A stretch of DNA of 39,525 bases, taken from assembly GCA_049298975.1 (NCBI GenBank), contig JBAQWP010000095.1, positions 1-39,525 on the forward strand. Direction: 5' to 3'. Positions 20,566-37,042 of this stretch are shown here, one piece after another. Position 1 is the first letter of the stretch. Every line of letters starts with the position of its first letter. The notes beneath the pieces were generated by a model, which saw only the letters and a list, made by a program, of their open reading frames with translations, did not search any database and had not been told where the DNA came from. The translations under genes and the position numbers were made by a program. The DNA is from Minisyncoccia bacterium. GTDB lineage: Bacteria > Patescibacteriota > Minisyncoccia > Phycocordibacterales > DATDWN01.

Positions 20566-23500
20566 CTAAAAATCTAGAGTAACTGAGGATGATTCAGCTC
20601 CAGTTTCAAAGTCATATTTTTGTGGATCATTAGAGTACACCGCTCGAACAACTCCGGTCGGAGACTTGATCATTTCGAAATATTTTTCTACTATTTTTCT
20701 CTGTTCTTCCGACAAGCAGAGTGTAATGTTTATATCTTGGCTAGGATTTAGTCCATCCTTCTTGCGAGCATCTTGAATCCCGCGAATAACATCTCGAGCT
20801 ACACCCTCTTCTTTTAGGTCTAATGTAAGTTCAGTATCCAACCAGATATCTGTTTCTAAAGTATCGGTTAGTACAACAGTTTTAACATTTATCTCATCTT
20901 TAATAATCTCAAGCATTTCTGTATTATCTTTCAACTTTTCACTTTTAACTTTTAACTCTTTCAGGGGCTGCCTAACCTTATGTCCTGACTTCTGCCTTAA
21001 CTCTAATGCTTTAGTAACAATCTCACGGACCACCTTCATGTCTTCTAGAATTTTATTATCTATACTCCCCACTTCTGGCCAATCACAAAGATGCACGCTT
21101 TCTGGGTCGCTCTCTACTCTAAGTTTCAGGTACATCCTGTCTGTGAAAAATGGTGTAAATGGAGCCATGTACTTCATAAGATTTAGCAAAACATATTTTG
21201 TAGTTGCTAGTGCTTCGTCTCTCTCCTTTTTATCCTCGGATTTTAGTCTCTCTCGAGATCGTCTTATATACCAAGTCGAAAAATCATTTACGAAATCCCT
21301 TATTGACCTTGTCGCCTCGAATACTTTGTATCTGTCTAAATTTTCCGTTCCGGTGGATATGAGCTCATTTAGTTTCGAAATCACCCATTTATCGAGCACA
21401 TTTTGGCTAGCATCGTGAGCTTCAACATTTTCATCCTTGTAGAGTTCATACAAGGCCAAGATATTGTCTAGTGGATTAAAAACTTTCTTAACTATTTCAT
21501 CTACATTTTTCTCGTCAAAGTTTTTCGAATCCCCAGGTTGATTAACCGAAAACATCCAAAACCTCAAAGTATCTACTCCGTGTTTATCCATCATGATCCA
21601 TGGATCAACAACATTCCCAACTGACTTTGACATCTTCTTGCCTTGACTATCGAGTATATGCCCAAGACATATTACATTTTTAAATGAATTACCTTTACCC
21701 ATTAGTACGCCTATAGCATGTAGCGTATAGAACCATCCTCGAGTCTGATCGATTGCTTCGGAAATATAATCTGCTGGATACAAAATTTCTTTTGTAGAAA
21801 ACGGGTAGTTGTCCTGAGCAAACGGCATCGCACCTGAGTCAAACCAAACATCCATAACCTCTTTTGTTCTGGTTAACTCTTCCCCGTTTTCATCCACCAA
21901 AACAACCTTGTCTATATACGGTCTGTGTAAGTCTAGCTCGTAATTTTCGTTATGTGGAAGTGGAACAAAATTCAGCTCACGTATTTCAGAATTTTTGAGC
22001 GACTCAAGATATTTATTCTTAAGCTCCTCGAACGAGTTTCCTTCCGCGACAAATGAAAGTGCTCTTCCTGTACCAGAATGACTAACTAACATTATTTTCT
22101 TACCTTGGTACTTCGAATCTATTTCATAAAGAAACTCGCCAGCTCTTCTTACTGTTTCCGCAAAACTCTCACCGTCATTAAACTTTTTTGTTGGAGCTTT
22201 CAAATAATCGATGTCATAGAATTTAAGTATTTCTCTTCCCTTACCTTCGAATTCCGAGGCTATCTCCCACTCATGTAACCTGTCATCAAAAATGACCTTA
22301 TCAAAATCAAAACCGTTTTTTTCACAAAATATTTTCGCCGTCTGTTTTGATCTCTCGTATGGAGAACAAAATACCAAGTCTACTTTTTCTTTAAAATTCT
22401 CAGAACTTTCCTCTACTTGTTTTCTGCCATTTTCGGTAAGATTTAATTTGTCATCGTTAGTTAGAATTATTTTGTCACTAACATTGTTTTCCGCCTGACC
22501 GTGTCGCATGACAAAGAATTTATTTCCAGACTTTTTGGTGTGTTTCTTGAGCTCGTCTATTCCACCGATTACTTTGTACTTGCCGTCTTTGTTAATCCAG
22601 ACTGGTAGTGGTGTTCCCCAATACCTCTCTCGACTTATTGCCCAGTCCTTGATTTCTCTAAGCCATTCACCAAAACGCCCCTCCTTTATATATGATGGCT
22701 CCCAATTTATGTTTTCATTCTCTGAAACAAGCTTGTCTCGAAGCGTGGACATGGCGATGTACCATGAGTCCCTTGCATAGTAGATAAGCGGAGTTTTACA
22801 TCTCCAACAGTGTGGGTATGAGTGCTCATACTTTTCCTTTTTGAAAAGCAACCCTCTATGAGCCAAATCCTTTATCACATCCACAGCAACTTCTTCATCT
22901 TTTACAAACCTACCACTAAGAAAGTCCATATCATCCAAGAAATTTCCATCCTCTTTTACCAAATGATGCTTGGGCAAACCTATCTTTGTTCCCAAAACAA
23001 AGTCGTCTTGTCCGTACATAACAGCAGTGTGCACAATGCCTATTCCATCAACGGTTGTGACAAAATCAGCAATATAAACTTTGTACGCTTTTTGAAAAGC
23101 TTCTGGGGATTTATCACCAAACTTTTCTTTCATGAAAGGATAAAGTGGTTCGTATTCCATTCCAGACATTTCACTTCCCTTATGCTCTGCAACAATCTCG
23201 TACTCAACGCCTAGTACTGAAAGTCTCTCTTTTGCTAAAACTAATATTTCTTCACCCTTATCGGTCTTAACTTTTGCTTCTACGTAAACAATATTTTCTC
23301 CGACTGCCAAGGCTACATTTCCTGGAAGTGTCCAAGGGGTTGTGGTCCAAGCAAGAAAGTAACCATTGTCAGTTCCTTTTATTTTAAATTTTGCGGTAAC
23401 CGACAAATCCTTATCATCCTGATATCCTTGAGCAAGTTCGTGTGATGAAAGTGCGGTTCCACATCGAGGACACCAAGGAAGGACTTTGTAGTCCTTATAC

Positions 23501-24009
23501 AAAAGTTTTTTATCCTCAACAGTTTTAAGCACATTCCAAACAGATTCTATGTATGAGTTGTGATATGTAACGTATGGATTTTCTTTATCCACCCAGTAAC
23601 CTATTCTCTCTGTGAATTTGCTCCACAAATCCACATACTCCCAAACACTTTCTTTACATTTTTTATTGAACTCCTCTATACCATAACTCTCAACTTCTTT
23701 TTTACTCTTTAATCCCAAAGCCTTCTCCACCTGTATCTCAACTGGTAGTCCATGTGTATCCCAACCGCCCTTTCTTCGAACATGGAAACCCTGCATAGTT
23801 TTATAACGAGGAATTATATCCTTGAAAGATCGAGCTTCTATGTGGTGTATACCTGGTTTCCCGTTTGCTGTTGGAGGGCCTTCGTAAAACACAAATTCAC
23901 CCTTTGTAGATTTTTTATTCAAGGTTTTCTTAAAAATTTCTTGTTTATTCCAAAACTCGAGAGTTGCCTCCTCGTTTAAAGCTATTTGTGATTTTTTAAC
24001 GTCCTCCAT
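20566..24009 (-). CDS. ileS: Isoleucyl-tRNA synthetase carrying an internal histidine-phosphatase (PGAM-like) domain
   Basis: Class I motifs (PTANGKPGIHH, KMSKSVGN) and the editing-domain block (TTTPWTLPGN). Residues about 496-685 read FFVMRHGQAENN...LTENGRKQ...SPYERSKQTA...VSHSG. Confidence 0.95.
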   Translation of the reverse strand: MEDVKKSQIALNEEATLEFWNKQEIFKKTLNKKSTKGEFVFYEGPPTANGKPGIHHIEARSFKDIIPRYKTMQGFHVRRKGGWDTHGLPVEIQVEKALGLKSKKEVESYGIEEFNKKCKESVWEYVDLWSKFTERIGYWVDKENPYVTYHNSYIESVWNVLKTVEDKKLLYKDYKVLPWCPRCGTALSSHELAQGYQDDKDLSVTAKFKIKGTDNGYFLAWTTTPWTLPGNVALAVGENIVYVEAKVKTDKGEEILVLAKERLSVLGVEYEIVAEHKGSEMSGMEYEPLYPFMKEKFGDKSPEAFQKAYKVYIADFVTTVDGIGIVHTAVMYGQDDFVLGTKIGLPKHHLVKEDGNFLDDMDFLSGRFVKDEEVAVDVIKDLAHRGLLFKKEKYEHSYPHCWRCKTPLIYYARDSWYIAMSTLRDKLVSENENINWEPSYIKEGRFGEWLREIKDWAISRERYWGTPLPVWINKDGKYKVIGGIDELKKHTKKSGNKFFVMRHGQAENNVSDKIILTNDDKLNLTENGRKQVEESSENFKEKVDLVFCSPYERSKQTAKIFCEKNGFDFDKVIFDDRLHEWEIASEFEGKGREILKFYDIDYLKAPTKKFNDGESFAETVRRAGEFLYEIDSKYQGKKIMLVSHSGTGRALSFVAEGNSFEELKNKYLESLKNSEIRELNFVPLPHNENYELDLHRPYIDKVVLVDENGEELTRTKEVMDVWFDSGAMPFAQDNYPFSTKEILYPADYISEAIDQTRGWFYTLHAIGVLMGKGNSFKNVICLGHILDSQGKKMSKSVGNVVDPWIMMDKHGVDTLRFWMFSVNQPGDSKNFDEKNVDEIVKKVFNPLDNILALYELYKDENVEAHDASQNVLDKWVISKLNELISTGTENLDRYKVFEATRSIRDFVNDFSTWYIRRSRERLKSEDKKERDEALATTKYVLLNLMKYMAPFTPFFTDRMYLKLRVESDPESVHLCDWPEVGSIDNKILEDMKVVREIVTKALELRQKSGHKVRQPLKELKVKSEKLKDNTEMLEIIKDEINVKTVVLTDTLETDIWLDTELTLDLKEEGVARDVIRGIQDARKKDGLNPSQDINITLCLSEEQRKIVEKYFEMIKSPTGVVRAVYSNDPQKYDFETGAESSSVTLDF

Positions 24010-24039
24010 TTTTATTTTATAAATTTGTAATTTGTTATT

Positions 24040-24215
24040 TCGAATTTAAAAAACTCGTCTTCATGCAGAATAACTTCTGCACAAGGACGAGTTTTTCTCG
24101 TGGTACCACCTTGTTTATCCTGCATAGCTTTAGCGACGCAGGGCTCATTACTGCTATAACGGGCTTACCCGCCCAGTTCTACTCGCCAACAATATTGTCG
24201 ACTTTCTTCCAGGTA
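24040..24215 (-). promoter_or_regulatory. T-box riboswitch leader of ileS
   Basis: Minus strand has aacaaGGUGGUACCACGag (24117..24100), one mismatch to the GGUGGUACCGCG T-box core. It is followed by the terminator aaaaactcgtc...gacgagtttttt (24098..24051) and overlaps an alternative antiterminator pairing. The specifier codon is not identified. Confidence 0.65.
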
Positions 24216-24227
24216 GCTCGGGGGTGA

Positions 24228-25262
24228 TTAGTCCCCTCTTACGCTTACTTTCAGAATACCAGAAAAAAACTTTTGCTTCAATCCCCAAGTACTCCCATGA
24301 CTAAGTAATCCCAAGTATGACTGAACTATTTCTCTGCTTGGATTATCTTGCAGTTTCTTCTTCATCCTCCTCTTTGTACTCGTCCTTAGTACTCTGTGAT
24401 ATGGAAAATGTACAAATCCAAGAAAATCTGCTCCTGAAGAGAGTGTTTCGATTGTGACTTTATTTGGGTGAAGTTTAAGTTTCAAATTGTTTTTTAGATA
24501 TATTGCGATATATCGCAATATATTAGTGAGATAGTTTTTATCTTGGGAAAGGACGACGAAATCATCTGCATATCGAATATAGTGTTTTAGTTTCAGCTCT
24601 TGTTTTACATATTGGTCAAACTCATTCATGTAGATGTTTACTAGGAGTTGGGAGGTGAGGTTGCCTAGGGGTAAACCTTTCATATCATGCGATATATCGC
24701 ATGATATGAAATTGGGATTAGTAGTATTAAAGCTTGAGATGACCTGGCTCAGTAACCAGAGAGTGTCGGGGTCTAGGTTGTGATACTTCAGGATGCTGAG
24801 TAGTACTTCGTGATTAATACTTGCAAAGAACTTCCTTACATCACACTTTAGTACCCAACATTGTTTTGTATTGTTTTGACTTACCCTTCTGCCAAAGTCT
24901 CTAAACCTGTTCATGGCACTGTGTGTTCCTTTCCACTTTCTGCATGAGTAGGAGTCGTAGATGAACTTCTTGTCGAAGTGTGGGTAGAGCACTCTGTAGA
25001 TAGCGTGATGAAACAGTCTGTCTCGAACTGTTGCTTTGTGAATGTTTCTTGGTTTTGGGTCGGAGATGTTGAATGCGTGGTAGGGGCCATGGGTGTAGGT
25101 TTTATTTTTCAAATCTTGGTGAAGGTTGTAAACATTTTCTGAAAGGTTTAAAGAAAACTCCATTACATCCTTTTTATGTTTCTTGCCTTTTTCAAACTCT
25201 TCCCAAGCTGAAAATAGGTTTTCAAGCGATACTATTTCTTTGAAAAAATCTTTCTGTTTCAT
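24228..25262 (-). CDS. DGR-type reverse transcriptase
   Basis: 344 aa. The catalytic YADD is encoded at 24561..24572. Motif 4 LGNLTSQ (24648..24668) fits the DGR-specific [ILV]GxxxSQ signature. There is no maturase or endonuclease extension. Confidence 0.9.
   Translation of the reverse strand: MKQKDFFKEIVSLENLFSAWEEFEKGKKHKKDVMEFSLNLSENVYNLHQDLKNKTYTHGPYHAFNISDPKPRNIHKATVRDRLFHHAIYRVLYPHFDKKFIYDSYSCRKWKGTHSAMNRFRDFGRRVSQNNTKQCWVLKCDVRKFFASINHEVLLSILKYHNLDPDTLWLLSQVISSFNTTNPNFISCDISHDMKGLPLGNLTSQLLVNIYMNEFDQYVKQELKLKHYIRYADDFVVLSQDKNYLTNILRYIAIYLKNNLKLKLHPNKVTIETLSSGADFLGFVHFPYHRVLRTSTKRRMKKKLQDNPSREIVQSYLGLLSHGSTWGLKQKFFSGILKVSVRGD
24498..24523. repeat. 26-bp perfect palindrome inside the RT gene
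   Basis: atatattgcgata|tatcgcaatatat; shares the core tgcgatatatcgca with the second palindrome. Confidence 0.9.
24678..24711. repeat. 34-bp perfect palindrome inside the RT gene
   Basis: tttcatatcatgcgata|tatcgcatgatatgaaa; encodes ..FISCDISHDMK.. immediately N-terminal to RT motif 4. Confidence 0.9.
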
Positions 25263-25268
25263 GTTAAA

Positions 25269-25682
25269 ATGCTAACTAAATTAAAACACAAAATAACTAT
25301 GAATGTATCCCCCCCCCGAGAAGCACCTAGGGTTTTAGTAAAAGAGAAAGAGGTATACAAATACTGGGTTACACTCCATAGAGACTTTCCAAAAGTAGAA
25401 AGGTTTGGAATAGGTCAAAAAATTGAGCAAAGTTTTTTGGATTTACTTGAGCTTACTTTTACATCCGTGTATCTTTCGCCAGAACAAAAAATAGTCTTAC
25501 TTGGTAGAACTATTGCAAAAATGGATAACTTAAAATTTTTCATGCAACTAGCTTGGGAAGCCAAACTCATACCAACAGATAAATTTGCAAAGATTTCTCT
25601 GGACTTGGAAGAAATAGGGAGAATGCTGGGTGGATGGAGAAAGGGATTACTAGAGAAAATACAAAAAACTCCGACCGCCTAG
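25269..25682 (+). CDS. avd: Avd-like accessory variability determinant (four-helix-bundle / 23S rRNA intervening-sequence protein family)
   Basis: FPKVERFGIGQKIEQS helix-1/2 motif and C-terminal EEIGRMLGGWRKGL (compare the Bordetella phage Avd EVGRILGSWI motif). The alternative start is 25299. A C9 tract lies at 25309..25317. Confidence 0.8.
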   Translation: MLTKLKHKITMNVSPPREAPRVLVKEKEVYKYWVTLHRDFPKVERFGIGQKIEQSFLDLLELTFTSVYLSPEQKIVLLGRTIAKMDNLKFFMQLAWEAKLIPTDKFAKISLDLEEIGRMLGGWRKGLLEKIQKTPTA

Positions 25683-25698
25683 CCGGAGAAAAATTAGA

Positions 25699-25816
25699 GT
25701 TTCGGGATCACGATGCGATGACGATACTTGCCATTCCAGACGTTCGAGTTCGAGAACCGGTTGACGTTGACGTTCAGATCACGATCATCGACATTCACGT
25801 TCGCAACGAAGATTTT
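25699..25816 (-). repeat. DGR template repeat (TR), noncoding
   Basis: 118 bp aligning without gaps to 26164..26281 (offset 465). 98 positions are identical; all 20 mismatches are T on the + strand, which is A on the minus strand, in this copy. In the target frame it carries six AAC codons at variable positions. Confidence 0.92.
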
Positions 25817-26081
25817 GTGTGATAGTCCCTCCTTGCCACCACCTCTCGAAAAATATCTCGAGGTTGAATTTTACTTGGGACATACAAGTCCACCAGACTA
25901 CCACACCAACTATTTATTTTTTTATTTTATGAAAAAATATCTCCACTCTTTTGCAAGGCAAATCTGAACGCAACCCGACAAAACTCTTGAAAACATTCTC
26001 ATACACCATATTACTGAAGCCTTAACCGCAGTAAACATATGAATGCATCTTAAATTTTATATAATTTTTTACAAAACAAAA

Positions 26082-26122
26082 GCCCTCTGGCACCGACGCG
26101 CGTTGCGTAAGTGTCAGAGGGC
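26082..26122 (-). terminator. GC-rich hairpin plus U-run 3' of the target gene (terminator and/or DGR target-recognition hairpin)
   Basis: gccctctggcac (26082..26093) pairs with gtgtcagagggc (26111..26122): 12 bp with one G-U. It is followed on the minus strand by ttttgttttgt and lies about 40 nt 3' of the VR end. Confidence 0.6.
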
Positions 26123-26152
26123 CAAGGGAACAAAGGGACAGAGCGCCTAGTT

Positions 26153-26806
26153 TCAGGCGGTCTGTTGCGGGACCACGAAGCGATGACGATACCTGCCAAG
26201 CCAGACGAACGAGCGCGAGAACCGGTCGACGTAGACGTACAGATCACGAACAACGACAATCACGCGCGCAACGAAGAGGTTCGAGAGGTCGGGTAGCACA
26301 TTCGGTCCGACCTTGAAAATGAAGAATGTGCCAAATCCCTCCGTACGGAGCTTGTCGCGATGGTCTTCGCAGAACGCGATGACCTGCTTTTGGGTCAAGA
26401 CAAGCTCCGCGATCGGCCTCCCGACCGATTCAAAGATGGTCTGAAAGTTTCCGTTCTGGACCATCTCATGGATCTCGACGATCTGCTTGGGCGTCGTCGT
26501 TTCGTCGAGTTCATCCGTACCCCACGCAACGAAATCGGAGTCGATGTGGCCTGAGAAAACACGGTCTGCGTGAGCAATCGTGCCAGCCCCAGCCAGACGA
26601 CGGATGCTGATCACTTCACCCTCGTACAGACGATGGAGTACACTCTTCATTTTCGGCGCATCGGCTTGGCCTTCGAGCCACGCCTTGATAAGACGCGAGC
26701 GCCCTTCCTCGCCCAGCATGTTGACCTGCTCAGCTGTCAGCCCGTCATCTGCGAACTTGCCGAAAACAAATATCATCTGCTCGATCGAATACGGAAGTGG
26801 AGACAT
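26153..26806 (-). CDS. DGR target protein (217 aa, high GC, no signal peptide, no recognisable C-type lectin motif) with C-terminal variable region
   Basis: The ORF track has 26153..26827 with a GTG start. ATG at 26806 is preferred because of aaaggatggggacgATG (SD plus 8 nt). The VR covers the last roughly 40 codons. Confidence 0.85.
   Translation of the reverse strand: MSPLPYSIEQMIFVFGKFADDGLTAEQVNMLGEEGRSRLIKAWLEGQADAPKMKSVLHRLYEGEVISIRRLAGAGTIAHADRVFSGHIDSDFVAWGTDELDETTTPKQIVEIHEMVQNGNFQTIFESVGRPIAELVLTQKQVIAFCEDHRDKLRTEGFGTFFIFKVGPNVLPDLSNLFVARVIVVVRDLYVYVDRFSRSFVWLGRYRHRFVVPQQTA
26164..26281 (-). repeat. DGR variable repeat (VR)
   Basis: Counterpart of the TR. Encodes ...NLFVARVIVVVRDLYVYVDRFSRSFVWLGRYRHRFVVPQ; the TR frame reads ...KIFVANVNVDDRDLNVNVNRFSNSNVWNGKYRHRIVIPK. 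Confidence 0.92.
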
Positions 26807-26971
26807 CGTCCCCATCCTTTCAGGCACATCGTGCCATTGCTGGCTCAGCGTTATGCTTTGCCACAGCAGAGAAAATCCTCAAAATTGTTACCTTTAGGGC
26901 ACTTTCTGCTATAGCAAAACCCAGACAAACCACTATTTCTCATAAAAATTCAAAGATCAAATTACACAATA

Positions 26972-27000
26972 ATTATATACCTATGTACAGCTTTTGTCAA
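26972..27000 (-). promoter_or_regulatory. Consensus sigma70 promoter driving the DGR target gene
   Basis: Minus strand: TTGACA (27000..26995), exactly 17 nt spacer, TATAAT (26977..26972). It sits about 165 nt upstream of the start codon. Confidence 0.6.
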
Positions 27001-27082
27001 ATCCGATTATTTTGATATTAGATAATTAGAAATTAGAAATTTTTTAGAGTTTTTTTACAACTTGTAATTTACCAACTACTCA

Positions 27083-28735
27083 CTACATCTTTTGTGGTAT
27101 CTTTATCCCTAAAAGATCCAGCCCCTCCTCCATCACCCCAACAAAAACTTTTGTTATATATAGTCTATATGAAGAAGTTGGGTCAGTTTCATCTATTATC
27201 TTGTGACTTGCATAAAAGCTGTTGAACTCCCCCGCTAGGTCAATAAGGTATGTTACTAAATGATGCGGAGCATATTCTCTTCCTGCACGCTCTACAACCG
27301 AAGAAAACCTTCCGAGAATTTTCTCTAAATTTGTTGTCTGCCAACCTTCTGGAATTTGATATTTGATATTTGATATTTGAGATTTACTTTTTTCTAATAC
27401 TGACCTCGCTCTAACTGTCGCGTATTGTAAATATGGACCAGAATCACCGTCGAAGGAAATCGATTTGTCGAAATCAAAGACAATATCTCCTCCGAGTGAC
27501 TGCTTCAGTATGGAAAATCTTATTGCTCCCAAGGCAACATCTTCTGAAATCTCCCCTATCTCTTTGTGATTGAGCTCCCTATCTCGAATTTTATCTTCAA
27601 CTTTTTCTTTTACTTGTTTGATTAAATCTTCTGCAGAAATAATCGTCCCTGTTCTCGACGACATTTTCCCAGATGGAAGTTTTAGAATTCCATGAGAGAG
27701 ATGGAAATGTTTACCTTTAAGATCTGGGAAAACTTCCCCAACTGCAACCTCAACAACCCTAAAGAATGAGTCTTGCTCATTCGCCGTGACAGTTATCGAT
27801 TTATCGTACGTATAATAATCTTTTTTTAGTTGAGCCAAACCAAGCTCTTTTGCTTCATATACTGGCAAACCATCCGAATTCAAAAATACTCGAGTATGAG
27901 TTTTTGGAACATAGTTTTCTCCTCTAAATATTATCGCTCCACCTTCGCCCTTTTCGAAAATTATGCCCATATTTTCTTCAACAAGTTGCTGACCCACTGG
28001 ACCACTCTGACTTTCATAAAACTGATAATCAAACTTACTACCAAGCCTTTTATATAGTTCCTCAAATTTACTAAAAGATTCCTCTCTTCCCTTCTCGTAT
28101 ATTTTAGAAATTTCTGGGTCACTTTCGTCGTATATCTTTTTGTTTATCTCAACTATCTCTTGCTTGGATTGATCATTGGTCTCATACGCATTATTACCAT
28201 ACGCATAGGCATCTTCAAGTGACTGACCGTTTTTCATAGCCCAGACTGCCTTTGCAATATGCATACCGACATCACCGTTATAAGAAACAACTTTTGCCTC
28301 TGCACCATTTGCTTTAATAATTCTAGAAACTGCCTCACCTATGTTGTTACTCATTAGGTGCCCAATGTGAAAAGCTTTAAACGGATTCGGTTGAGAATGT
28401 TCGAAAATAATTTTTTGACCAGAAAGCATTTTTCCATAAGTTCTCTTTTCAATTATTCCTGCAAAATATTCAGCTGAAATAAAAAAATTAATAAACCCTG
28501 GAGGTATGATTTCTATTTTGGATATGCCAAAAATTTCCCTCTCATCTAGTTTTTGTTTTATTTGGCATGCAAGGTCAATCGGTTTTTGGGAAAGCTCCTT
28601 AGCGGAAGACATGGCGGCATTGGTAGTATAGTCCCCCAACTCAATATATGTCGGGTAATCTAAAGTAAACTTAGGATCTTTAACTCCAAGTTCTATCAAA
28701 ACTTCCTTTATATTTTTTGATAATTCCTCTCTCAC
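27083..28735 (-). CDS. argS: Arginyl-tRNA synthetase
   Basis: 550 aa with HIGH-type FHIGHLMSN, the MSSRTG loop and an ArgRS anticodon-binding C-terminus. Confidence 0.95.
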   Translation of the reverse strand: MREELSKNIKEVLIELGVKDPKFTLDYPTYIELGDYTTNAAMSSAKELSQKPIDLACQIKQKLDEREIFGISKIEIIPPGFINFFISAEYFAGIIEKRTYGKMLSGQKIIFEHSQPNPFKAFHIGHLMSNNIGEAVSRIIKANGAEAKVVSYNGDVGMHIAKAVWAMKNGQSLEDAYAYGNNAYETNDQSKQEIVEINKKIYDESDPEISKIYEKGREESFSKFEELYKRLGSKFDYQFYESQSGPVGQQLVEENMGIIFEKGEGGAIIFRGENYVPKTHTRVFLNSDGLPVYEAKELGLAQLKKDYYTYDKSITVTANEQDSFFRVVEVAVGEVFPDLKGKHFHLSHGILKLPSGKMSSRTGTIISAEDLIKQVKEKVEDKIRDRELNHKEIGEISEDVALGAIRFSILKQSLGGDIVFDFDKSISFDGDSGPYLQYATVRARSVLEKSKSQISNIKYQIPEGWQTTNLEKILGRFSSVVERAGREYAPHHLVTYLIDLAGEFNSFYASHKIIDETDPTSSYRLYITKVFVGVMEEGLDLLGIKIPQKM

Positions 28736-36356: not shown

Positions 36357-36995
36357 CTAGCTGAGGAGTGAAATCAGGTGTCCGGCCGTCTCGCGACGAG
36401 CGGCGAGAATCTTCTCGCGCTGGGTCTGCGCCGCGACACGGTTGAGCTCGGTTGCCCGAGCATCCTTCGCTTTCTTGGCCACACGCTGAGCCTCTCGTTC
36501 ACGAACAACGCGAACGTTGTCTCGGCGACGCTGTACGACGTCCGCTTCGGCCAAACACTTCTGCATGGCGTTGTGGGCGTCACGCCGCAGGTCGAACGTA
36601 CCATTGGTCTCGAGGCGAACCGCCTCGAGAACCCTGGTGTGAGCCTTGCGAAGCCCGCCGACGATGTCCTCGTCGTAACCCTCTTCGACTCGGAGCCGAA
36701 GCTCCTTGTTGAAGTGGGCCTCGCGAACCATCTGTCCATCATCAGTCATCTGATCGAAGACAGAATTGCGGACGTACTTTCCGAGGATCGAGCGTCCGAC
36801 GGAGACGATGTCTCCACCACGTGCGAGGGCCGTTTTGGCGTCGTTCTGTTCGATGGCCTCGGCCATCTGACGCACCCAACCGGCGACAGGATCACCAACC
36901 TTGAAGTCCATGAAGGACTTCATTGCGGCAATCACCTCCGTCACGCGCTCAACGGACTGCTCAAGGGTGATCTCGTGGCGGGTGGAATTCTTCAT
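36357..36995 (-). CDS. High-GC (about 60-65%) orphan protein, 212 aa, Arg-rich helical C-terminus, unknown function
   Basis: The frame is supported by a strong G/C bias at codon position 3 (hand check) and by ggagaatgcgATG at 36995. Overlapping ORFs on both strands are high-GC shadows. Confidence 0.65.
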   Translation of the reverse strand: MKNSTRHEITLEQSVERVTEVIAAMKSFMDFKVGDPVAGWVRQMAEAIEQNDAKTALARGGDIVSVGRSILGKYVRNSVFDQMTDDGQMVREAHFNKELRLRVEEGYDEDIVGGLRKAHTRVLEAVRLETNGTFDLRRDAHNAMQKCLAEADVVQRRRDNVRVVREREAQRVAKKAKDARATELNRVAAQTQREKILAARRETAGHLISLLS

Positions 36996-37042
36996 CGCAT
37001 TCTCCAACTTTTTCCGATGTTTTTCCCTCAAAGAACGTTATT

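Follow-up and report, generated by a model that had tools for sequence, protein, structure and literature searches.

Positions 24228-27000 of contig JBAQWP010000095.1, part of a metagenome-assembled genome (MAG) of an uncultured, ultra-small Minisyncoccia bacterium from the candidate phyla radiation (CPR), very probably hold a complete chromosomal diversity-generating retroelement (DGR) of a type common in CPR/Patescibacteria. The components run in the order target gene, template repeat (TR), inverted accessory gene (avd) and reverse transcriptase (RT) gene. The window, meaning the whole stretch of DNA that was analysed, is the entire 39,525-nt contig. A first-pass annotation made from the letters alone had called the element complete, and all the parts have been recovered: an RT of the DGR clade, a bAvd protein, a TR paired with a variable repeat (VR), and an intact target open reading frame (ORF) that bears the VR. 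Its core features are the following.

24228..25262, minus strand: DGR reverse transcriptase gene, 344 aa; Pfam RVT_1 at E 1.5e-25, LGNLTSQ at residue 199, YADD at residue 231
25269..25682, plus strand: avd (accessory variability determinant), 137 aa; Pfam PF22296 bAvd at 50.9 bits (cut-off 40)
25699..25816, minus strand: TR, 118 nt, with 32 adenines, 19 variable codons and the terminal motif CGAAAC
26164..26281, minus strand: VR, covering target residues 176-215 and ending 3 codons short of the stop
26153..26806, minus strand: VR-bearing target gene, 217 aa from the ATG at 26806 (ORF open back to a GTG at 26827)
26972..27000, minus strand: predicted sigma-70-type promoter of the target (TTGACA, 17 nt, TATAAT; 12/12, a consensus match only)

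TR and VR align without gaps at an offset of 465 nt and are identical at 98 of 118 positions, while all 20 mismatches fall at a T of the TR on the plus strand, which is an A on the minus strand; their VR partners are 9 A, 6 G and 5 C (plus strand). By the hypergeometric distribution, 20 randomly placed mismatches would all hit the 32 A positions with a probability of 1.1e-14, and TR and VR agree at each of the 86 non-A positions. The first-pass alignment was thus reproduced, with no non-adenine mismatch on re-alignment, and its account of the coding consequences holds in the frame of the target ORF. There, changes at 20 of the 32 TR adenines alter 16 codons of 26153..26806 (16/16 nonsynonymous), including all six AAC codons of the TR, which become R, Y, Y, D, R and F. 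Nearly all TR adenines (30/32) occupy codon positions 1 or 2, and the 19 variable codons allow for about 9e17 possible protein variants. Homology ends abruptly at 25699/26164, the 3' end on the coding strand, and fades gradually beyond 25816/26281 at the 5' end; repeat detection gives 114 nt for the match. The terminal motif of the TR recurs among related loci as CG[A/C]AAC. A blastn search of the TR against the whole window found no second VR.

The RT was described in the first-pass annotation as being of DGR type because of its YADD and LGNLTSQ motifs, and this is borne out. Both motifs are present, and the best sequence match in the PDB is the Bordetella phage DGR RT (8ub7_A), at E 8.7e-39 over the full length, far better than the group II and 'retron-type' RTs in the same database, which reach about 1e-21 against the window RT. 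Judged by its motifs and its closest relative of solved structure, the RT belongs to the DGR clade. It is 63% identical to the RTs of related CPR DGRs, and its clade comprises at least 7,934 homologues at E <= 1e-60.

Next to it lies avd, whose start codon faces that of the RT head to head at a distance of 6 nt; an additional in-frame avd ATG is found at 25299. The first-pass suggestion that this 137-aa ORF is Avd-like, based on its C-terminus EEIGRMLGGW, stands, as the Pfam bAvd model is passed. That account left out three features of the locus: the position of avd on the opposite strand, a C9 run near its start and structured RNA flanking the TR.

Related elements were collected by scans with RT alignments, taking the top 80 loci each from species-representative genomes and from metagenomes. 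The resulting comparison set comprises 168 related loci with an RT, of which 154 have a full avd and 121 a detectable repeat pair, and the genome records among the loci from the RT scans are nearly all filed under CPR names. In 154 of 154 loci with a full avd, this gene runs opposite to the RT, the TR and the target, and the order is that of the window: target (-), TR (-), avd (+), RT (-). Differences between TR and VR are A-biased in 119 of the 121 loci with a repeat pair. A separate word-based search recovered four relatives of the target only; those with sufficient flanking sequence share the cassette of target, TR, opposite-strand avd and RT, and TR/VR differences in these cassettes are again adenine-specific.

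In the window, the cassette is flanked by ileS and argS within housekeeping-gene surroundings, and is chromosomal rather than phage-borne. An independent Logan assembly (L172) is 100% identical to 24682..28440, which argues that the G+C-rich target amid A+T-rich flanks is no chimera of MAG assembly. A 35-nt inverted repeat (24013-24047 / 26945-26979; 71% complementary, A+T-rich) brackets the cassette almost exactly, which may be due to chance, given A+T-rich DNA between genes.

This layout has been described before. According to the text of a survey by Wu et al. 2018 (NAR, PMC5758913), 90% of CPR DGRs have an architecture named B3, in which avd and TR differ in order and orientation, and variable regions in CPR mostly fall into unclassified 'UVR' groups. 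As far as the survey's statement in the text goes, the window element fits B3: host group, components and order are the same, its target is domain-less like the 'UVR' classes, and no feature of the element contradicts membership. Its layout and CPR host therefore place it in an already described kind of DGR. In the portions of the survey's text covered here, an avd-start repeat, a three-way-junction RNA 5' of the TR and G+C enrichment of the target go unmentioned.

A simple-sequence repeat at the start of avd

Little is known about how DGR activity is controlled, and in surveys most DGRs seem to be static. The start of avd may offer a clue, as it contains the following feature.

25309..25317, plus strand: C9 homopolymer in avd codons 14-17 (S-P-P-R), just ahead of the conserved Avd domain

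This is the sole run of six or more G or C in the 39.5-kb window. It is in frame with both upstream avd ATGs, which we denote 'ON', whereas in the closest relative, L001, which also has a C9 and a leader of other length, avd is out of frame. A simple-sequence repeat occupies the start of avd in 153 of the 154 related loci. In 127 of the 153 it is a poly-C tract of 6-13 nt (mostly 8-11), while the other 26 have another simple type, nearly all dinucleotide repeats such as (CT)n, (CA)n, (GA)n and similar. The distance from repeat to Avd domain is fixed (interquartile range 37-40 nt), as opposed to the distance from repeat to RT, which ranges from 14 to 158 nt and is 46 nt in the window. Long runs of this kind are concentrated at this site: across 919 kb of related loci, 110 of 128 G/C runs of at least 8 nt are at the avd start. 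In every locus, an upstream ATG, GTG or TTG reads into the repeat, and many loci lack an in-frame start downstream of it.

In our reading, Avd production is most likely rendered stochastic by the repeat; what homopolymer and dinucleotide repeats share is slipped-strand mispairing in DNA. A further step, which we put forward tentatively and at somewhat less than even chance, is that the hypermutable repeat gates DGR mutagenesis by phase variation across a large CPR clade, forming a contingency locus placed over a diversity generator. If so, slippage would shift avd in and out of frame, and a minority of cells would inherit an ON state of the hypermutator while all others would inherit the OFF state. 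Such gating would account for consensus VRs that often do not differ between samples although the cassettes stay intact. A conserved slippery repeat at the start of an essential accessory gene would provide an on/off mechanism that is concrete and open to testing.

Phase-variable genes of Neisseria, Haemophilus and Campylobacter mostly specify surface structures, restriction-modification systems and similar functions. Their contingency loci likewise have a pure homopolymer or dinucleotide repeat just past the start, length differences between strains, and both frame states. Unlike in those loci, the candidate switched gene here would be a component of a targeted hypermutation machine. Full-text literature searches, which did not cover Paul et al. 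2017, returned no paper that ties Avd or DGRs to homopolymers, simple-sequence repeats or phase variation, and the accessory-gene section of Wu et al. 2018 (PMC5758913), as far as its text was covered, does not mention the repeat either.

Sequencing error, transcriptional or ribosomal slippage, or irrelevance of the frame may instead lie behind these observations. The alternative that comes nearest to an even chance is that C9 is no switch at all, but a tolerated poly-proline leader, a part of the 5' leader or promoter, or homopolymer noise from sequencing and assembly, with the frame being irrelevant. The frame counts agree with this: the repeat leaves avd in frame in 60 of 153 loci, and 65 are expected by chance, a fraction that irrelevance of the frame would likewise predict. 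This alternative is harder to reconcile with a repeat present at nearly every locus, at a fixed distance from the Avd domain and a variable one from the RT. It also has to accommodate the 26 loci with other repeats, which indicate that repetitiveness rather than sequence is conserved, and the upstream start codons that read into the tract in every locus, often with no later in-frame start. Codon usage and the clustering of long G/C runs at this one site speak against it as well, as CCC is the rarest proline codon in the window (22/319). In some loci the run lies 4-9 nt ahead of the RT start codon and could serve as a ribosome-binding site. As a general role, a ribosome-binding site or promoter element for the RT was considered and judged unlikely, given the range of RT distances and the 46 nt found in the window.

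Comparisons among near-identical loci bear on the possibility of noise. L003 and L004 show 6 differences in 10,364 nt, none of them more than 9 nt away from the tract, and a G8 run in another part of the contigs is invariant, which counts against the absence of a switch. Similarly, the first 1,824 nt of L155 and L160, covering target, TR and avd, are identical except for the tract. Overall, tract length differs in three of eight near-identical clusters (L003 vs L004-8; L155/L160/L163; L014/L018/L021), where homopolymer sequencing error is a possible cause. It is constant in most repeatedly sampled populations, in line with there being no switch. For example, in two further populations the tract is constant at G9 (8 contigs) and G10 (2 contigs), both out of frame and with identical VRs, and the tract forms the end of three contigs. 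That long G/C runs are prone to errors and are frequent break points of contigs also favours noise.

Two observations on the same tract stand apart from this argument. Assemblies of related populations (L176, L178, L185; L182, L186, L187) often break at or beside the G/C run upstream of the RT, which fits either a run that is poorly sequenced or one whose length varies within the population. A-to-N differences between TR and VR are slightly more numerous where avd is in frame than where it is not (19.8 vs 17.3, p = 0.001; poly-C only, p = 0.015; L012-L171), a suggestive difference that phylogeny may confound and that was left unused.

Structured RNA around the template repeat

The TR is embedded in a region with several predicted RNA structures, and the VR is followed by another.

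25659..25688, minus strand: terminator-like hairpin (25688..25669) and U-run, 11 nt 3' of the TR, overlapping the stop codon of avd on the opposite strand
25817..25910, minus strand: structured RNA domain with a three-way junction directly 5' of the TR, formed by a 12-bp closing helix and two hairpins
25908..26036, minus strand: upstream part of the VR-TR spacer with RT-9-like hairpins (RF03080 RT-9, sub-threshold)
26072..26122, minus strand: G+C-rich hairpin (26122..26082) and U-run, 41 nt downstream of the VR

The three-way junction shows strong covariation. RNAalifold on 46 loci gives 21 pairs, of which 19 show compensatory changes, and 96% of cells are paired, compared with 72% in shuffled alignments and 32-51% in slid controls. 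Its covariation score is 0.786 vs 0.315 in shuffles, and none of 500 shuffles reaches 0.786. The single-stranded motifs TTGGTG, AAATAAAATWCA and GGTGG are conserved, and no Rfam family covers the junction itself. Immediately 5' of it, the window matches the whole RT-9 model (RF03080, model positions 1-92 of 92) at 33.2 bits and E 0.0008-0.0015, under the gathering score of 46.1; of 18 related loci, not one attains this score. Relatives likewise have hairpins whose loop reads GGTTAcGGCTT. RT-9 and RT-10 were described by Weinberg et al. 2017 (PMC5737381) as conserved RNA structures beside RT genes, with RT-10 corresponding to the spacer between TR and RT in the Bordetella phage DGR; their guess was that further DGRs are served by other motifs of this set.

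On the 3' side of the TR, the hairpin folds at -11.7 kcal/mol and was found by a terminator scan. Nearly all related loci share its arrangement: past the TR end CG[A/C]AAC come a short linker rich in U and C (often TTCATTTCTC), a hairpin whose stem shows compensatory changes, and GTTTT. The hairpin past the VR is far more stable (-28.6 kcal/mol, z = -4.6, with none of 200 shuffles equally stable), and comparable hairpins follow the target in L001, L005 and L010. From its fold and U-run, 26122..26082 is the predicted intrinsic terminator of the target gene. It possibly also corresponds to the homing-promoting hairpin known from the Bordetella phage DGR; hairpins are reported for only 34% of DGRs in the text of Wu et al. 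2018 (PMC5758913). We infer from these features a separate structured RNA of about 370 nt that contains the TR and extends between the two terminators.

Elsewhere in the comparison set, a LOOT RNA (RF03000, 81 bits) lies just downstream of the RT at 4569-4686 of L036.

The target gene and protein

The target, publicly annotated as 'hypothetical protein' in the source MAG, has a helical N-terminal part, followed by a C-terminal domain of some 160 aa that belongs to an unnamed family. It has no Pfam or NCBIfam match, and no relevant Pfam match was found among 51 family members. The family is nonetheless large: a profile search of 1.84 billion representative proteins found at least 2,240 members (one per cluster) at E <= 1e-3, of which 532 remain at E <= 1e-30, mostly of 200-240 aa with the C-terminal domain in common, and with tandem copies in a few.

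An AlphaFold2 model built from a 51-sequence alignment reached a pLDDT (predicted local distance difference test) of 92, and replaced a weak model from 5 sequences (pLDDT 73). In this model, the VR corresponds to a beta-hairpin and the final strand. A Foldseek search with the model found nothing significant in the PDB (best E 0.76) and no matches in BFVD. Among the weak PDB fold matches, C-type lectins recurred (Mincle, NKR-P1A, NKp80; template-modelling (TM) score 0.35-0.45), which makes a very remote C-type-lectin (CLec)-like fold possible for the modelled protein; no sequence or fold match to the C-type-lectin/FGE-sulfatase type of Mtd or TvpA was significant. As a member of a large, unnamed and confidently foldable family with no structural relative in the PDB or BFVD, the target may represent a new type of scaffold able to absorb massive variation.

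The target is 55% G+C, compared with 37-38% in neighbouring genes. This is a wider tendency: across 101 related loci, the 400 nt ahead of the VR average 51.6% G+C, as against 37.3% for RT, 38.3% for avd and 43.2% for the host flank, and target G+C exceeds that of the RT by more than 5 points in 86 of the 101 (55% vs 38% in the window). In the G+C-rich part of the target outside the VR (26282-26806 in the window), A and T are reduced about equally.

A 224-aa ORF at 36357-37031 was considered as a second target and rejected, having no similarity to the target or TR and no Pfam match. It is the one ORF of a small island on the minus strand with 60% G+C in a genome of about 37% G+C, flanked by G+C-rich hairpins.

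Mechanism, activity and affiliation

The features above suggest the following mechanism. The minus-strand TR would be transcribed within the non-coding RNA of about 370 nt, starting past the target terminator, carrying the RT-9-like hairpins and the three-way junction 5' of the TR, and ending at the hairpin and U-run 11 nt past it. A complex of RT and Avd would copy the TR into cDNA with misincorporation opposite adenines, and the cDNA would then replace the VR, re-randomising up to 19 codons on the beta-hairpin and last strand of the C-terminal domain of the target. RT and avd would be transcribed divergently from their head-to-head starts. As the avd C9 is in frame, the window copy would be in an expressible state.

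Ongoing activity of the DGR is plausible on this evidence. Intact ORFs for RT, avd and target, an avd in frame, a consensus promoter and the absence of any TR/VR difference at the 86 non-A positions are all compatible with it. An unlikely alternative is that the element is a fossil or silent DGR, whose VR was once diversified, is now fixed and is kept by ordinary selection. No polymorphism of the VR was found for this strain in the copies searched, which came down to L172, the sole other copy of its locus, which may stem from the same sample; its VR is identical. Exact-protein look-ups of RT, ArgRS and target returned nothing for this strain, its one cluster mate is identical, and the metagenome scan found no RT above 69% identity to that of the window. 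In related populations, too, VRs are identical in up to 16 contigs from different samples, and at consensus level avd is out of frame in about 60% of related loci. A fossil is at odds with the intact ORFs and in-frame avd of the window, and the lack of non-A differences suggests that the last homing event was recent. Loci with avd out of frame have no excess of non-A mismatches over those in frame (0.86 vs 0.79, p = 0.8) and their RTs are intact, which together speak against decay.

The DGR of Bordetella phage BPP-1 (mtd-avd-TR-brt) is the experimental prototype of these elements. It resembles the window element in its homologous RT (E 8.7e-39), its bAvd-family accessory protein, adenine-specific TR-to-VR differences concentrated in AAC codons, a VR at the 3' end of the target, and a G+C-rich hairpin downstream of the VR. 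The window element differs in having a TR 3' flank of about 45 nt (hairpin and U-run) instead of a spacer of about 140 nt, a large structured domain 5' of the TR, no recognisable IMH/IMH* (initiation of mutagenic homing) pair, a target with no significant C-type-lectin match, and a chromosomal location among housekeeping genes rather than in a phage.

Some of these points count against the assignment, together with the identical VRs discussed above. A counterpart to the IMH/IMH* pair of the Bordetella phage DGR is not seen and no unmutated G+C-rich IMH lies inside the repeat, where A-to-N differences extend to 4 nt from the end. The NCBIfam model DivGenRetAVD scores 64.6 bits for Avd, under its cut-off of 80. 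The start of the TR transcript is itself inferred, and the structured RNA is on the 5' side of the TR, whereas that of the Bordetella phage DGR is on the 3' side. The priming step can therefore not be transferred from the Bordetella phage model. With an RNA layout reversed in this way, cDNA priming in a very large clade may differ. Finally, the top NCBIfam model for the RT is a group II intron RT/maturase (E 4.7e-45, 154 bits vs a cut-off of 300), in a collection that has no DGR RT model.

This last match, and the public labelling of close homologues as group II intron or retron-type RTs, are what could be said for the view that the RT belongs to a group II intron or retron and that the 118-nt repeat is an unrelated duplication, a view with next to no probability and already refuted by the tests run: the group II score is half of the cut-off, the retron model of NCBIfam gives 63 bits vs a cut-off of 235, the DGR RT in the PDB is a far better match, an Rfam scan of the whole window found no family, group II intron or retron RNA included, at gathering score, the mismatches are confined to adenines (P = 1e-14), and a bAvd gene adjoins the RT. 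The labels themselves are widespread, as RTs of the clade (proteins P0157-P0276) are widely labelled in public records, either 'group II intron reverse transcriptase domain-containing protein' or else 'retron-type reverse transcriptase'.

Within the RT coding sequence, two 26-nt near-perfect palindromes (24498-24523 and 24682-24707) with the common core GCGATATATCGC are found 184 nt apart, one of them in a loop that differs from related RTs. Downstream of the RT, a hairpin and T-run at 24049-24096 was considered as its terminator and rejected, being the terminator stem of a T-box leader (RF00230; 24080-24250, minus strand) upstream of ileS (20566-24009). This leader matches the full model length at 59 bits (gathering score 93) and E 1e-12. 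At the 5' end, it shares sequence with the final 8 codons of the RT ORF, and there is no terminator between the RT and the ileS leader.

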